This document shows positions 16,790-56,115 of a stretch of DNA of 64,000 bases, piece by piece (positions within the stretch are counted from its first letter, which is position 1; every line of letters begins with the position of its first letter). Source of the stretch: Perkinsus olseni. Lineage: Eukaryota. Below the pieces are notes generated by a model that was not told where the DNA came from, searched no databases, and was given only the letters and a program-made list of their open reading frames with translations. The translations under genes were made by a program, and so were the position numbers. The DNA lies in the NCBI GenBank assembly GCA_013115125.1, contig JABANN010000057.1, positions 1 to 64,000 on the forward strand. Reading direction: 5' to 3'.

Positions 16790-17749
16790 ATGTCTGTCGA
16801 CGGGGAGAGCGAGCCTAGTGTCACGCGTCCGTTGACGGGCGGCACTGAACAGGTGAGTTTCCCGAGGGGGATCTCAGCACCGCTGGTGGTTGGGGGCGTA
16901 TAGGTATGCGTGTAAACATAATTGCCGTTCGTCGTAACTCCCTGTTGTAACAGCGGCCGTGTCCTCAGGGTCATCGGAGCAGCTCGTACCCTCTGCTCTG
17001 TGGTTCGGTTCCAGGACGACGGACAGTGTATGAGAACATGCCGTTTGCCCTGCGAATGGTTGTAGGCATTGCAGCTGGCGCTATGGGGATGAATGGGTGA
17101 GGCCTTCTTGTCTGTGGCTGTACTGGCATCTGCTGCCCTCAGGATAACTCTCCTCTTCTCGGTGGGGCATGGCTATACGACTCACGTTTTAGGAGTCTAC
17201 ATGACCGCTATGTCGGTCATCATCACCACCGCTGAGTTCCTGCCTTTTGCAGTGGACACGCTGGTCCCGGTGAGCTTTGACAGCCGTAGTGCCGCCTTTT
17301 GTTGGAAGATAGCCCGCCGCTGCTCGTTGCTCTCCAGTGACGGTTCAGATTAACGAGGTCTTTCGTGTCTCGATGGCGGTTTTCCGCTCAGTGGATGCCG
17401 TTCCTCAAGCACTACGGTTCGCGTGCGGTGGTCTACTTGCTGGCAGCATTCCTGTGCATGGGGGAGGAGATGGGCCTAGCAGGTACCCCTTCCCGCACTC
17501 GCTCGTTTCGGTGAAACACTTTTACTTGAGGGGGGGGGCTTGAACGTGATCCGCGAGTTGGTCATTCATGAGTTGTCCGTAGGTAGATGTGCCGGAGTCC
17601 TGATGTTCATCGGCTCAGCGGCTTCATTTGCCTTCCATCGGTTCTATCCTGGGGCCCTGGACCACGTCCTTCGGCCAGGCAACAGGGTTGCAGTAGTAGA
17701 GGATGATGGTATGGCTATGGGCTTGATAGGAGAGAATCCATGCGCCTGA
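16790..17749 (+). CDS. COPI-associated (Tvp15-like) small multi-pass membrane protein
   Basis: About four hydrophobic segments plus WMPFLKHYGSRAVVYLLAAFL, which resembles the family motif FL..Y.GRG..Y. Confidence 0.6.
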
Positions 17750-17961
17750 GGGGGCAATGTATTTATCTATTTCTTGTAACGATTCACTCTGATCGGATTC
17801 GTTGTCGAGTTGAGCGTGCCGCCCTGGTCTGACCAGCCTGCGCGACTGTCCTACGTAGCGGCTATCGGGGTACATAAGTTCCGCACGATCGTCTATCTAG
17901 TAACAGCGAGTAGACTACTTTGTGGTAGTGTCGTCTTAGTGGTAGTGAGGGCTTCGCCGGC

Positions 17962-18045
17962 CCAAGTGTGATGATGCCGTGCCCCTCGCATACTTGTCAC
18001 GCTTGGTGCTTCACGGTGGTGTTGTGGCAGTGTAGCTGAGCTAGG
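17962..18045 (+). ncRNA. Possible box C/D snoRNA
   Basis: GTGATGA at 17968-17974 and CTGA at 18036-18039 with a weak terminal stem; target not established. Confidence 0.25.
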
Positions 18046-18097
18046 TAGTAGTGATTTCAATTCGGCGCGGCTCTTGTCCGTGAATCGAGAGCTTCCT

Positions 18098-19069
18098 ATG
18101 TGGTGGTGTGATCATGGCTTCTCCCTAGAGTATCGTATACCCTCCTTATAAATGACAGGCTCCCCCAGCAGGAAATCGAGGGCTGTGGCTGGCCGCTATC
18201 CAAGGTGAGACGAAGAAGTGTCGGCTTGCGTTACTCGTGTCTTAAAGGTTTGAGCTTCGCGATGACCACAAGGCGGAGCTGAAGGAGGCCTTCGATGTCT
18301 TTGATAACGATGGTACTGGCACTATTGATGTCAGGGACCTGCGCGTGGGAGAGGGCTCCCTGTGTCAGCTGCGTTGGCAGTGATGTTGTCCAGGTTGCTT
18401 TGCGGGCCTTGGGGTTCGAACCTGAGAAGGACGAGCTGAAGCGTCTGGTTGGTGGGGCTTGGGGAGTCGCTGAGGGGCTGAGGCAGAAGCTCACTGTGCT
18501 TCAGGGAAGCACACGAGGCATCCGGTGCCGAGGCCCGCTACTGTAGGGGAAGAGTCGACGACTGGTGATAAGGAGCCTGAGAAGCCTCGATCCCGGCAGC
18601 AACAGCAAAGGGATCCCTCGACGCAGCCGACCCCGCAAGATGCTGAAGAGAGTAAGCCTCAGGAGGGGGAAGGGGAGGAGGCGACCGTGCCGGAGCCTAC
18701 CAGTGAGTCCAGCTCTGATTTGGTGGACGAGTGGTATGTGTACTGCCGAGGCACACTGGACTTCCATGAGTTCCTCGAGATCATGTTGGAGAAAATGACC
18801 GAGAAGGATTCGAAAGATGAGGTTGAGAAGGCTTATGAGATGTTCCGAGGAGAATCTGGGAAGGTGTCCTATGATGACCTCAAGGCGGTGGCGGAGGAGC
18901 TTGGTAGGATCTGCCGCGGGTGGGCGAGGGATCGGGCGGCTTAGGTGACCGCATAGCGGAGGAGGAGCTGCGGGAGATGATTACCGAGGCCGATCTGGAT
19001 GGAGATGGGCTGATCAGCCAGGAGGAGTTCATCAGAATCATTCTCAAACCCGGTAGTGGACCATTATGA
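18098..19069 (+). CDS. Centrin-like EF-hand protein with a long low-complexity insertion
   Basis: [33 protein letters not shown] ... TLDFHEFLEIMLEKMTEKDSKDEV ... ELREMITEADLDGDGLISQEEF; start codon uncertain. Confidence 0.85.
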
Positions 19070-19230
19070 GCATGGGAGGGACTGAAGTGTTGGCAGCGAC
19101 CCTTTGGTTGCGTTAGTAATGTTATACCAATCGGCAAGGGGAGGACCTAGTCGAAGCTTCGTGGTTTTCGCTAGTTCGCGGGTCTCGGAAGACGAGAGGG
19201 AAGGCGGGGTCAGCCTTTTCGGAATTTCCA

Positions 19231-22200
19231 ATGACAAATGCGGCAGTTAGGCAGTGGTTGGCGTCCGATGGGGACGAGGAGGAGGAGGAGGAGGAGCAGG
19301 ATATCGAATTGGTGACTATTGAGAAGATCATCAACCGGGCCGCCAGAGGGTAGCTTCGGGAAGACAGCAGGCCCATGGATATCCCTCATGCACAGATTGC
19401 GGCGTTGGTGCGTGGAGGATGAGGGCGAGAAGAAGGTTAGGAGCTTACTCGAAGTTATCTGGACGACTTCCATGAATTACATAAAGCGTCAAGTTGTACT
19501 CGGCAAGATGATTGCCCTGCCAACATTAGGTGCTGTGGGGGAGGGGTCAGGCGTTCGGGCCAGGGGAGATGTCAGGCACCCTCTTCACGAGGGAGGGAGT
19601 TCCCTGCATCGCCTTCGCTGAGCGGCTTATTCTCGACTATGGTCTCACTTACCTGCCGGGAGAGAGCTACTGTCTCGGACTGGTAGTAAGAGGGGTTGTC
19701 AGGGTCGTACGGGAGGAATGGGGAAAGCCCGGTGATGACAAAAGGCATTCCAAAAGACCCAGTATTGTACCGGTTGCCCGGGCAGCTGTGGTATGATGAA
19801 GCATAAAATCTTTAGTAATCTGATGAGGGTTGAGCATACCGGTCTGTGATGATATAAGGCGAATCTGTACCCGATCTGCTGTCCAGAGTCGAGGTATGAT
19901 TAATGGAATTCTTTAGTAATCTGAGACGAACGCCGTACGGAAGGCCATCGAGCGGCCTGTGTTCAACAGATTACTTTCCGTATCAGGTTGGCCCAGCGAC
20001 CCGTATAGCGTTCGGTGTTGTGGCGGAGCTCAGCGGTCGAAAGGGTGGGGATACCGTGACAGCGGCCATGGCGGAGGAGGGGTTGAAGCGTGAGCTCTTG
20101 CGGCCAATGGGAGTCAACTGCCTTTTTGCAGCGCGGTTGGACAGGTATATTTCGCGAAGCAGCTGAAGCGATGTCGATGTACCGTACTGATGTGACTATG
20201 GTATTGGAGAGCATTGGCAGAGTAGTCAGCCGGAATAAGGTCGTTGGGTGGGACATGCGGGGGAGGGCTGCTCTGGATGAGCAGGCCAGCTGGTAGGTTC
20301 CAACCTTTCGTTGAGTATGGCGCGGAGAGTGCTCGGGGAGGTAGGGGGCCCGTCGGGTTTTATTGGCGATGTGGTGGCTCCCTAGGTTCTGCGTTGAGGT
20401 CTCCGATTACACTAAAGGGCCTGGAACGTTATCACCGGGCTAGACAGAGGTCTGCACGGGGTCTGGAATTGGAAGATGGAAAGGTGGGGAGTCTGCGGTT
20501 TGATGGAGCCGCTCGTCACTTCCACGTCATTGTAGGGAATTGCCTCCCATGGTGGAGCTGGTGGATTGTATTCCGGTTTGGTATCACCAAGTAGTGGGAA
20601 GGGTACGAAAGGTATGGTATGAGCATGCGTACGGTCGTAGGTAAAGCACTGGTTCCAGCGCTTGACCTGCGTAGGAGCTTCCGGGCTCGAAGATATACCA
20701 ACCCGCAAGGCGCGTCGACTCAGAGGAGTCATCGCACAGAGTAGGGTGGGATGCTGTCAGCGGGAGGATCGTTTGAGTTGGTATAAGGTTCTCGGACATA
20801 GTTGACTTGTCGTCTCGAACACCGGGTGCTCCATCGACGCAAGTTGAAGGCCACAGCATGGACTCCTCTATTGTCGCTAGAATTGGCAGCAACTACACCC
20901 CTCTATCGAGGCGAATGTAGGACGGCAGGGCGAGACTTGTAGTACTTCACAGCATAGGGTCGCGAGGCCGGCCCGATCCGGTGAGGGCCTGGCTTGGATC
21001 CCTGTGGAGGCATCTATGCTGGGGCAACGGTTCATGCCGCTGGACGCGCCGTCTACGGAGTCCGGTGGAGAGGGGCGGCTGGCTCGTCAGAGACGACCGT
21101 TGGTGAGTGTCTGGGGGTATCCAGGTCAGGTGATACTCAGGCAGGTATTCGGCAGCCGAAAGCTGCGGAGGGCAATGAAGGACCTTGGGCACAGTCAGGA
21201 GAGTCTGCTGGAAAACTTCAATAGGTAGTATGGTTCCTGGGCTTCTAGTAGGAGCCTTCTGCTCAGGTATGATAGCTATCTTCACTCTGCTGCCCTCGAG
21301 GCCTGTATCTCGCCTGTGGATGCCGGGTCGCTCGGTCGTATTGAATCGAAGATTTGCAACGGCTCCTGGTACGGGTCGATGGGCGTGCATGAGCGAGAGA
21401 GCATCAAGAGCGCCCTCGAGGAGGTGACGAGAGGGCATGAGAGTGTTGGTATCTATGCTTGTGTGCAGCTGCGGGCCGAGATCATGGCGCAGTACGAAGA
21501 AGCTGTCCGTCGGGCGGTTGTGGATTACCTCCTTATGGACCTGCGTATGAGGGAGAGGTGTAGAGTCAGCTTCGTTCCTGTGGTGAGTGGAGATACTGTC
21601 GATGGCGAGTTCGATGATTATGGACTCCTCAGGTACGCCCTGCTTGGGGAACGAAGGCATACTACGGGATTGGGGGCAGGGTTGGAGGACCGCCTGCTGA
21701 GTGGGAAGTGTCGGTTGCCGGGGCGTAGGGCTGGCCTGTTGTGATGGTGGGGAACGAGGTCATTGGCTCAGGTTGGACTCGATGCAAAGTCCCTTGCGCA
21801 GTCTTCACGTTCCCTTCGCCGCTCTGCTGAGCCTGCAAAGGCTGTGGGCCGAGTCTTATGCTGCGGTGACTCTCAATGATCTAGCAGGTGATGGTGAGAC
21901 CAGGCGATTGTAGCGTATCGTTTTTGATCGCAGGAAAGGAGCCGGTCCGTGTGGAGACGTTCTTGGATTATCAAAGCTCGAGGCGGGACGAGAGTCGCCG
22001 GGTACTTAAGGACGTATGGATGAGCGCGGTGATTGACATCATATCACACGACCGGACGCTGATGACATTACTAGAGGACGAAGGCTCGGATGACGAAACG
22101 AAGAGGAGGAAACTGGGGGTGATCACGGCCGTCCTGTCGTCTCATCTTAGACGGTAGGCTCCCTTAGTGCATGGGGTAGGATGGCTCCACTTAGGTTGGT

Positions 22201-25200
22201 GGAGGTATCAGCTGGGGAGTTTATCAAATACGTGTTGCAACACACTTCACCCTTGTGCGGCGGAGTGGCGGTGGTGACGCCCGAACGCGCGGCCTGGGAG
22301 CTGCATGCGTGTCAAAGGGACCTCTGTGGCACCGTGGGGTAATAGGGCGCCATTGTCCTCAATCGCAGAGGGTCTCTCGTGCAGAGGGCCGCTGCCGATT
22401 CCACGGGCATTCCTGGAGTTGAGGCTGATCGCGGAGGGCAGCGCCATCGCTTTCACAACGGAGCTCGATAAAGTGCCGAGAAGGCTGGCGAAGATACTCC
22501 CTAGTATGGTCTCCGCTGTGAGGGGCTTGCCGAGGCCTGAGAGGAAGCTGCCAATGAAACCGAAGGAGTCCTCAGAGGCGGACTCGGAGGGGGAGAGTAC
22601 CAATGACCAGAGCGAAGGTGGGGTCGAGGCACCATGCAGTGCGTCACGGCCGAGAGAATGAGTAGATGCGCCGATGGTCGAGGAAGTCGGCGAGTTGTGG
22701 TATGTTGACGAGGAGGAGCCACTGATTCTTGCGGGCATGAGAGCGATCGAAGAGTCCGTGACAGTGTGCGCTGAGAATGCCGAGGGTATCGCGAGGCTTT
22801 ATGAAGGGTGAGTGTGCGTCAGGCGGCATTGGTAACGCGCTTCAACCTAAGATACGTTGATCTTCTGACAGAAGAGGACCGGGCTCCTCAGTTCATGGTG
22901 AGGGTTTTGGACACCAGTGATCGCGGAGCTTTCGCGAGGAAGGTGGGGTCTGGGGTGAAAGTCTGTCCCTGCTAAGCTTTGCGTTAGATACGGGACCTGA
23001 CCAGTGTCGAGGCATCCCTGCTTGACCACTGCCCATCCGTCCTGGACCTTCAGCTCTTCCGTATAGACTCGGGGAGGTTGCATGATTCCTTGGTAGCCGC
23101 GGCACGAGCCGGGAAGGAGGCTATGAGGGAGGCAGTAGTAGAGAGGAACAAGGAGCGGTGCATTCATGTACTTAAGAGGCTGGAGGAGTTGGCGGTGAAG
23201 TTGAGGAAGCCGGCCAGTACCGAGGCCCAGCTTGCTGCATTAGAACGTACGTTGGGAGGGCTGAAGAAGGAGGGGTTTTTGGCTATGTTTGAGGAATTCC
23301 AAGAGTGTCTGAGATGGCAAGATGTACTATCCGACCTGGACCTAATTGTGGGCCCCGAGGAGCTGTCGTTGGTGTATGAGACTGCAGTCTGGCTCCGCAA
23401 GATTGAGCGGCTTTGCAGCGAGCGAGAGGATGGGCTTCTGAAAGAGCGCGAGGTCTTGGAGGAGAAGTTCAGCGCAACGAGGAGGAAATTCGAGGCTCAG
23501 TTGGAGGGAGTGTGTAATGCCGTCGACCGAGTTGAGGAGCTTGGTACTCTGCGATTGGCGGAGGAGAATCTCGGGCGTGTTGCCGCGGCTAGAGAGAAAG
23601 TAGATGGGGCTGTGCGTGAGGCTGCTAGAGTGAATGAGAAGGAGGTGGACCTGGGATATCCTGTGAGCCCTTTTGAACAGTTGAAACAAGTAAGACTCCA
23701 GTACAGCGACATTTTTCCTCTCCATGTGGATAATTTGGCAGGCGGTGGCTGGGCTGGAGGCTTGCGAGAAGTTGTGGGGGTTAGCATTTGAGTTCAACAG
23801 GGACCATCAACAGTGGACTCGAGGGCCGCTGTTTTACCAAGAGCCGAAGCTCATCGACGAAGCTTCATCGCGGATGCTCAACTTGGCCAGCCAACTAGAA
23901 GAGCTCTTCGCTGAGGATACCCCTCCCCGTGGGGTCGTTGCAGCGATGAAGTCGCAGCTGGAGGAGTTCAGAGAGAGCTTGCCTTTGATTCGGGTTGGAG
24001 TCCATTTCCGGGTGGTCCCTATGCAGCTCAGTGGCCTCAGGTCCTCTGCTGGAAAGGACTTGCCGCGAGACACTGGGAGGAGATATCGGACGTCGTGGGC
24101 TTCCACATGGAGCCAGACCCGACCTTCACTTTGTCTAGGATACTCGATATGGATGTGGGGAAGCATGTGAGAGGATAAGGCTAGCCGCTAGCCTTCATAG
24201 ATCGCTATTTGTGGATTCTTGGTTCAGGTGTCTGCTCTCATGGCCATCGGTGAACGTGCTGCTGTAGAGTCGAGAATAGCAGAAACGCTCAAGGAGTTGA
24301 AAAGACAAGCTGCTGAGCCCACTCTGAAGGCGACCAGATTCGGCTGGACTTCTTCTTTTGTGAGCTCTGATGTCGTCTATCCGGGCGGAGTATGTCCTGA
24401 GTCGTTCCAAGGTCCTGTCTCCGGACTCCGTCCGAGCTGTGAGAGGTGCCTTAGCGGACCACCTACTGCGGCTGGACGGCGAAATAATGAAGGTGGCTGG
24501 GGCTACTGAGGTCCCCGGGCTTTCGGAACTGAGAGGTCGTCGTGAGCGGACCCTGGCAGTGGGCGGGATCATTGATATGTGGGTGGAGACCGAGAGGGAG
24601 TGGAAAGCGCTGCGCTATGTCTTGGATGGCAAAGGAGCTGATGCTGGGCTTCCTGGGTTCGAGGATGAGCACTTCCAGTGTTTCGGTGAGGTAAGAAGCT
24701 AATGAGGTGGACCATTGTGCGGACCCTCTTGGGGGTGTGTCCGCGTCCAAATTCGGCGGCCGAATCTAGTGATCTGTGAAGTTCACAGATCGCTGGATTC
24801 GGGTTTGAGTGAACTTCATCGTCTTCAGTATGGGTCTTTCAGGAGTTGAGCACTCGCGTAGAAATTGTTCTCTGATTCGCTGTTGCACACTACGCCAAAT
24901 ATGAGGATACTCGCGGTAGTGTGGGCTATGGGTAGGTAGATGAGCGTTGGAGAGAGCTGATGATGAGAGTCCACGACTCACCTCTGACGGTAGAGGATCT
25001 ACTGAAGAGCGGCAACACTGTTGCCGATAAGCTCAGGTTTGTATCTAGGAAGCTCGAGTTGGTAGGGCTCGGAGTTTCTCCGTGTGTGGATGTGTGTTTG
25101 GCAGTTGTCTCCAGCATTAGGGAAGTACATGGAGGCCAAGCGTCATCAGTGCCCACGCCTGTTCTTCCTATATGGGGACTCCGAAATGCTCAACTGGCTG

Positions 25201-54732: not shown

Positions 54733-56115
54733 ATGCATTCCTCATCTCTCCCGGTAGTGGACAGTTCAAAAGGCGCGCAGCCGAGCCGTCTGGCGGCCGG
54801 GGCGATGAAGGCTAGTGCATCGGTAGCTGATATTGGTAAGGATTATAGTGGAGGAGCACAGCAACGTTGTCTGGGAAAGAGTAGGACAGCTGTGCCACCA
54901 GCTTCCGTATGGAGCCAGTGAAAAACCAGGTGTATCTGCTCGGGAACTGGGTCTAGACTTCCTGCGGGCTCTCACTGAACAAAGCGGCCCTACGAGAGGC
55001 TTGGGGAGAACGAGGTGAGATGGGCGGTTCTGTCTCCTCCAGTTCATCACTCCGGGCCGAAGCGGCGTACTTTTAGCGAATGCCGCGGAATGATCGAGCT
55101 CACTCACTGTAGAGATGGAGAATACGCTCTGGGCGTTCAGATTCACTCCGTGGGGTCCTGGTCCGCCGAAAGCGGGCAGTACTCGCTGGCGACGGGATCT
55201 CAGATTGGAGAAGAAGTCCAGAATTTTCGAGTCGAGCGGGCATCCTGCAACGCAGTTCAAGAAGATGTACGAGCGAGGGGATCTCCCCGTTATGATCAAG
55301 CATGGTGAGCCGAAAAGACATTAGTGGTTGTGTGAAATTTTCTTACGATGAGCCTTCTGCCGGAGTCGAACCGACGACCTCCCGCTTACTAAGCGGGTGC
55401 TCTACCAACTAAGCTAAGAAAGCTTGTTGTTTGCGTATTCGAATCGTATCAGGTGCCAGGAGCTATCTAGAATGGAAAGTGCCAATATCTAAGCTCGACT
55501 ATCAGCATTTCCTGCCCGTGTTCGTCGATGGTATGAGAGAGAAGAGTGAACCGTAAGCGGCAAGACCAGCTCACAGCAAATAGCAGTTCATTTCAGATAC
55601 CGCTTCGTAGCTCGGGAGGGTTCCCTCACGCTCCTCCGAGAAGGAAACGAGGCCAAGATATTATCGGCAGTCCCACAGCTAGTAGCCCCACTCAAGCAGG
55701 CCTTGAACACGAGGGACCCGGATACTGTGGTGAGCCTTTGAGCGTATGGGTTCGATCACGGTTCTCCCACGTTTGAAGTAGGTAAACACCCTGCACGTGT
55801 TACAGCTGCTGGCTAAAACCTCCCCACTGGTCGGCGAGTCGTTAGTGCCCTATTATCGGCATCTCTTGCCGATTCTGAATATATTCAAGGCCAAGAAGCG
55901 GAATACGCGAGACTTGATGGACTATGCTCAGCGGAAACAGGATTGGAGAAATCTAGGTCCGACCGACCTTGTCTTGTCTCAAGCTCTGCGCTAAGACTCT
56001 GCCGACAGGTACTCTCATCGAAGAGACATTGAACGTGCTGGAGTCCACTGGGGGCGAAGATGCGTTCGTGAATATCAAGTACATGGTGCCCACATACGAG
56101 AGCTGTGTCTATTGA
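54733..56115 (+). CDS. PACRG: Parkin co-regulated gene protein family (axonemal inner junction)
   Basis: [58 protein letters not shown]. Confidence 0.92.
55351..55423 (-). tRNA. tRNA-Thr (anticodon AGT)
   Basis: GCTTTCT acceptor stem, TAGCTTAGTTGGTAGAGC D arm, CCCGC-TTAGTAA-GCGGG anticodon arm, GGTTCGACTCC T arm; 73 nt. Confidence 0.96.

Follow-up and report, generated by a model that had tools for sequence, protein, structure and literature searches.

A tandem pair of compact box C/D units with U5 C45 guide complementarity in an intron of Perkinsus olseni

Box C/D guide RNAs assemble with the core proteins fibrillarin, Nop56, Nop58 and Snu13, and their intronic forms are freed from the debranched host intron and then trimmed. 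In the exon-aligning loop I of the U5 snRNA, C45 is methylated in human (PMC7960923), fly (PMC13228274) and Arabidopsis (PMC8053127), and Cm45 has been described as occurring in many eukaryotes (PMC5733568). The animal guide for this position is U85 (SCARNA10; RF01296), an intronic RNA in which a C45 guide at box D is combined with an H/ACA domain holding a Ψ46 pocket. In its Rfam consensus and in the human probe (PMC4041459), AAGGC stands a few nucleotides after box C, followed by four bases and GUGA. Xenopus U85 was reported to methylate an extra, unnamed position through a weak element (PMC5733568), and Table 1 of a 2021 review gives no guide for the neighbouring human Gm37 (PMC7960923). 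In Arabidopsis, the two positions fall to separate RNAs: snoR130, a 120-nt, intronic, C/D-only RNA, is assigned to the measured U5 Cm48, equivalent to C45, and snoR102-2, with AAAAGGCGAAT followed by CTGA, to the measured Gm40 (PMC8053127, PMC2685112); snoR102 and Drosophila mgU5-38 are both guides for the G37 equivalent. Intronic snoRNA clusters are known from algae and plants (PMC7671301), and a tandem arrangement directed to snRNA exists in mgU2-19/30 (SCARNA9), where two C/D domains share one intron (PMC4041459). In the literature covered, which included few subscription papers, we found no U5 guide for Perkinsus or other alveolates, and the accessible parts of the fungal, nucleomorph, Cryptosporidium and Ostreococcus snoRNA literature yielded no U5 C45 guide.

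The window analysed here is a 64,000-nt stretch of the Perkinsus olseni genome (assembly GCA_013115125.1, contig JABANN010000057.1). A previous reading of its letters without database searches (the sequence-only reading) had placed two U85-like guides in an intron of an alveolate; the host is indeed Perkinsus, and proteins of Perkinsus olseni share 86-92% identity with a dynein exon close by (3 matches among 8000 candidates scored). The intron, GT..AG and 304 nt long, occupies 19683-19986 on the plus strand, where all the features below also lie, and it is spliced, with a joint 19682->19987 in run X1. This is a single run available as contigs only, and its RNA status is a tool's guess, though splice joints are present. 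The intron is the third of its gene, in phase 0, and it is long for its surroundings, the remaining 14 of the 15 splice joints listed in 17500-25000 (at least 18 joints in total) skipping 41-61 nt. The spliced host mRNA encodes a 205-aa protein with a weak, sub-threshold match to the CCDC81 HU domain (Pfam E 0.049 and 0.16). Beyond the stop codon, the host contig runs on for about 680 nt (20296-21075) with two more spliced introns, 20484-20535 and 20741-20787, which represents either a long spliced 3′ UTR or an overlap with the next gene. An EF-hand (centrin-like) gene, at about 18700-19069, lies directly upstream of the host gene and a dynein heavy chain gene downstream.

Within the intron, the boxes C, the AAGGC elements, the internal stem and the outer stem were all found where they had been read from the letters. 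Unit 1 opens with a box C GTGATGA at 19732-19738, followed by AAAAGGC (19740-19746), a degenerate D′ box TTGT with an internal hairpin and the C′ box ATGATGA (19765-19799, C′ at 19793-99), and a D guide that runs into box D CTGA (19807-19823, box D at 19820-23). After a spacer of 22 nt lacking GU repeats (19824-19845), unit 2 repeats this order with GTGATGA at 19846-19852, AAGGCGAA plus T and a D′-like CTGT (19856-19868, CTGT at 19865-68), an internal hairpin with a C′-like ATGATTA (19869-19902, C′ at 19896-902), and a D guide with CTGA (19910-19924, box D at 19921-24). Boxes C and D are perfect in both units and the C′ boxes are good, the D′ boxes lacking the GA pair; D′ and C′ of each unit are joined by a 3-4-bp stem. 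AAGGC is placed 3 nt after box C in both cases (starts at 19742 and 19856), and the TACC/GGTA internal stem lies at 19768/19790 in unit 1 and 19868/19893 in unit 2. The kink-turn terminal stem is a 3-bp helix in place in unit 2 (19842-44/19925-27), and in unit 1 a 5-bp helix (19726-19730 with 19827-19831) displaced by 3 nt from box D, which suits the overlapping alternative box ATGA (19823-26) better than CTGA; with ATGA as box D, the +5 position lands at the duplex edge. The whole arrangement is flanked by a 7-bp outer stem, CGTACGG (19706-19712) with CCGTACG (19933-19939), with a duplex energy of -12.9 kcal/mol.

From box to box, the units measure 92 and 79 nt and align with 79% column identity, retaining box C, AAGGC, the internal motif TGTACC/GGTATGAT, the guide and box D. 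This selective retention between diverged copies favours the guide reading; the units are paralogues that probably arose by tandem duplication. Both contain TCTTTAGTAAT followed by CTGA (19809-23 and 19910-24), a 15-mer that occurs twice in the 39.9-Mb genome, both times in this intron (reversed control, 0). A DNA search for more paralogues with 19700-19945 returned only itself.

The target proposed by the sequence-only reading, C45 in loop I by the D+5 rule, had been deduced from human U5, with the organism's own U5 put forward as the check. This genome has three U5 genes that pass the Rfam cut-off, with an identical stem-loop I in all of them, and against this native sequence, its loop G being numbered 37 as in PMC7960923, the prediction holds. 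The D guide pairs over 12 nt in unit 1 (U5 U42-U53) and 10 nt in unit 2 (U42-A51), entirely by Watson-Crick pairs, and the fifth base before CTGA is in both units a G opposite C45 (G19815 and G19916). No wobble-free run matching the U5 pairing was found in U2, U4, U6 or rRNA; since the assembly contains rRNA only in part (positions 24-1444 of the LSU model plus a short piece, and 889-1823 of the SSU), rRNA targets are excluded only in part. U5 antisense stretches of at least 10 nt ending 0-1 nt before CTGA occur twice on the plus strand of the window, in these two units, and nowhere on the minus strand, and a first-order Markov null gave 14 such guide-plus-CTGA sites per 12 million nt, or 3.5e-4 per 304 nt. 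Each U5 gene has another snRNA gene or snRNA-like sequence nearby: U4 on contig C3068 (at some 180 nt), U2 on C1858 (some 3.4 kb) and a U1-like sequence on C1015 (some 240 nt). The U1 matches (L056 and L057) scored 48.3 and 31.2 bits against a cut-off of 69.5, and in the second of them the 5′ splice-site pairing end is absent from the stretch read.

Altogether, we consider it quite likely that the intron encodes a paralogous C/D pair directing 2′-O-methylation of U5 C45, with AAGGC most likely as an extra grip on the target. By analogy with the established C/D pathway, we infer that the units would be released from the spliced host intron, the debranched intron liberating an RNA whose ends are trimmed to the limits protected by protein, and that with fibrillarin, Nop56, Nop58 and Snu13 they would 2′-O-methylate C45 by the D+5 rule. 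The AAGGC element would pair with the 5′ side of loop I (G37-U41), helping to open the U5 hairpin. That AAGGC could reach this other side of the loop had also been anticipated, and it does so in both copies, with 7 bp in unit 1 (G37-U43) and 8 bp in unit 2 (U34-U41). Together, guide and element cover up to 18-20 contiguous U5 nucleotides over U34-U53, and in unit 2 the duplex of AAGGCGAA with U5 adjoins that of the D guide, as do over half of the extra pairs reported in plants, which abut the primary duplex (PMC8053127).

Two alternative roles can then be considered for AAGGC, that of an extra grip and, for unit 2, that of a second guide. A feature missed by the sequence-only reading is that unit 2 holds AAGGCGAA-U-CUGU in D′+5 register with G37, C19860 standing opposite this nucleotide when counted from CTGT. 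Since the element of unit 2 is 8 bp long and followed by a D′-like CUGU, this unit may methylate G37 as well, a predicted second activity to which we give slightly less than even weight. Against it, CTGT lacks the GA pair, and the G37 and C45 sites are 8 nt apart, a distance of 7 nt in plant U15 having been judged too near for joint binding (PMC8053127); if both sites are used, it is probably one at a time. In unit 1, AAAAGGC has no D′-like box in register because a 9-nt insertion parts AAGGC from the D′ position. Here, CAAAAGGC (19739-19746) also matches U2 12-19 perfectly over 8 bp, again with no D′-like box in register, because GCCUUUU is common to U2 and U5. The G37 guide pattern gave 31 matches in the genome against 25 for the control, and in 4 of the 30 fetched a box C lies at most 170 nt upstream: this locus and those labelled L030, L028 and L033. 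The last two were dropped, the rest of the C/D anatomy being absent by eye. The remaining one is a separate 88-nt C/D candidate at 47202-47289 of contig C442 (minus strand; L030:1500-1587), with a box C, an internal hairpin, a C′-like box and a 9-bp guide at a perfect box D whose +5 falls on U5 G37, as in the snoR102 and mgU5-38 type; it has no Rfam match. As this candidate could guide G37, the D′ guide of unit 2 is not needed for that position. An exact pattern for U41 guides gave 0 matches (control, 8), and no single short RNA with both G37 and C45 guides was found in the literature covered, few subscription papers among it.

Folded in full, the intron does no better than shuffled sequences (z 0.25), and in this fold the outer stem is displaced by pairing of 19967-75 with the guide and box D of unit 2; it appears only in a fold restricted to 19700-19945. 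A tail element close to the 3′ splice site (19963-19975) is complementary to both guides with their boxes D, matching 12 of 13 positions of 19814-26 in unit 1 and all 9 of 19915-23 in unit 2, with duplexes of -14.3 and -12.1 kcal/mol, a complementarity equalled in 1 of 400 shuffles in a test picked post hoc. This element also belongs to a hairpin, 19936-49/19969-82, in competition with the outer stem. In SNORD2, a duplex between the snoRNA and its host intron hides the branch point (PMC10324135), and we may speculate that the tail element similarly couples RNP assembly to splicing.

The RNA evidence bears on whether the locus is expressed and in which form. Over the intron, two depth bins of 80.8 and 414.7, against about 10 nearby, resolve to a single contig with a depth of 935, some 76-fold the 12.3 of the spliced contig. 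This contig, placed at 19739-19869 with no strand given and adapter at both ends, is inferred, since it is known from the bin depths and loose adapter ends and is not printed; 19870-19985 is covered by none of the contigs listed, an absence that proves nothing. Contigs show neither RNA ends nor levels, and the depth may stem from one amplified (jackpot) insert, so these data suggest that a stable intron-derived RNA accumulates. Because the contig spans the spacer, a single doublet RNA becomes a live rival to the two monomers of some 90-100 nt, made polycistronically, that the sequence-only reading had proposed, and we regard the two forms of the stable product as about equally likely. The specific proposal that the units are domains of a single stable C/D RNA, some 200-235 nt long, with the outer stem as its limit and incomplete cleavage into monomers, falls in our estimate just short of an even chance; it leaves the target unchanged and is compatible with C45 guiding, differing in biogenesis. 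The contig extends 46 nt beyond box D of unit 1, into unit 2, though its insert may come from the excised intron or a precursor. One outer stem surrounds both units and the own stem of unit 1 is displaced, but each unit keeps full C and D boxes plus a stem, and box C of unit 1 with box D of unit 2 would have 1 stem pair only. Stable multi-snoRNA forms exist in Ostreococcus (PMC7671301), and doublets in human (PMC4041459) and Arabidopsis (the long snoR102, PMC2875012); the 22-nt spacer, on the other hand, has none of the GU repeats of the 175-nt spacer of mgU2-19/30 (PMC4041459), and there is no (GT)3 run anywhere in the intron.

Another reading, in which only unit 2 works as a guide and unit 1 is a decaying duplicate, appears unlikely. 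The 9-nt insertion breaks the D′ register of unit 1, and the geometry of its terminal stem is shifted. Moreover, a convincing target for the 15 nt before its D′ box was sought and rejected, as the best snRNA duplex (-11.0, with U2 8-20) was matched by 324 of 500 shuffles; a genome search with the D′ guide 14-mer found one-mismatch sites at 4 other places, the control having 10. However, the U5 duplex of unit 1, at 12 bp, is the longer of the two; unit 1 also has perfect C, C′ and D boxes and is the part that lies under the high-depth contig. We find it improbable that the RNAs act as chaperones or inhibitors of U5 loop I, or as regulators of host splicing through the tail element, in place of methylation guides. 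Such roles would fit the long U5 coverage, the D′ boxes without GA, the energies of the tail duplexes and the snoRNA-host intron duplexes described over a branch point (PMC10324135), but the +5 of both copies falls exactly on the nucleotide methylated in animals and plants, and this intron has no alternative splicing in the one run. That the motifs arose by chance inside a long intron is the least credible explanation, to which we give almost no weight. In its favour, there is no Rfam match at gathering score and the folding is not unusual; against it stand two copies with ordered boxes, each with a null expectation of 3.5e-4, and this reading is already largely refuted by the uniqueness of the 15-mer to this locus in the genome, the RNA cover on the intron and the Markov null. 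We conclude that the pair of predicted U5 C45 methylation guides is real and probably expressed.

The label U85-like, given to the units by the sequence-only reading, stands for the target and the AAGGC element, and falls for family membership. Infernal searches against Rfam, which had been proposed as a check, found only tRNA at gathering score in the whole window (a tRNA-Thr(AGT) gene lies at 55350-55423 on the minus strand). The U85 model gave the locus 14.3 bits where 41 are required (E 0.18 in 901 nt), and genome-wide nothing significant (E 1.92 for the top match among the 26 candidates scored out of 633); with this model, 10 of 14 control genomes also give matches at E 10. The C/D-only nature of the units was borne out: no H/ACA domain was found in either, the D′-C′ loops being of 24 and 27 nt with no fitting H/ACA pair, and in a search for a Ψ46 pocket no half reached 5 nt of complementarity to the 5′ flank. 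CAB-type UGAG is found only at 19824, 19831 and 19922, and none lies in H/ACA hairpin loops. When JGI metagenomes were scanned for a pattern of box C, AAGGC, C45 guide and box D, two loci emerged, one within an apparent bacterial gene and the other in an AT-rich stretch lacking both stems and Rfam support; as both were judged chance, no homologues were gained, and with an exact-layout pattern and a eukaryote-poor collection the result is no evidence of absence.

Compared with U85, the Perkinsus units are functional equivalents of its C/D half but not members of the family. They share the intronic location, the position of AAGGC shortly after box C (with a D′-like tetramer 4 nt further on in unit 2, as in U85), and a C45 D guide with nearly the same 15 nt up to and including box D. 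They differ in their size, 79-92 nt against a model of 329 positions, in their two tandem copies and in lacking the H/ACA domain and Ψ46 pocket, and AAGGC pairs with U5 over 5 contiguous bp in the U85 consensus against 8 bp in unit 2. A frame such as unit 2 (about 88 nt, with a G37 guide at D′ and a C45 guide at D) could be ancestral to the C/D part of U85, animals having gained the H/ACA domain in the D′-C′ interval while keeping AAGGC and the tetramer in unchanged register, and the Perkinsus pair accumulating as one doublet RNA with box D masked by the tail until assembly. We hold this scenario to be doubtful; if true, U85/SCARNA10 would become a candidate for the guideless human Gm37, for which the presence of AAGGC by box C in both U85 and the Perkinsus units offers a cheap test.

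The core finding is expected biology. The sequence-only reading had inferred a minimal C/D-only guide and a deep conservation of the modification, and both points were largely in print already: the former with snoR130 and the latter as the wide conservation of Cm45 (PMC5733568). The guide of snoR130 ends in TTTAGTAAT, the same 9-nt guide end as here (PMC2685112), but it is placed at a degenerate D′ box CTGG, whereas the Perkinsus guide is at box D, and snoR130 is a single unit with no AAGGC in its listed sequence. Regarding G37, snoR102-2 has the guide register of the unit 2 AAGGCGAAT plus CTGT and of the C442 candidate, AAGGCGAAT being common to snoR102-2 and unit 2; in snoR102 and probably in mgU5-38 this guide precedes box D in an RNA of its own, and in unit 2 at a degenerate D′ box of an RNA that also bears the C45 guide. 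As in mgU2-19/30, two tandem C/D domains directed to an snRNA share one intron, but the latter has a 175-nt GU-rich spacer and two targets (PMC4041459), and the Perkinsus units 22 nt and the same main target. What is new is a tandem of compact and possibly dual G37/C45 guides in a new lineage, which would extend guided methylation of U5 loop I to the alveolates, a third supergroup after animals and plants within the literature reached. The work on C45 and G37 appears to be packaged differently in each of them: with a nested H/ACA domain in animals, in snoR130 plus snoR102 in plants, and in tandem compact C/D units, one of them possibly carrying both guides, in Perkinsus.
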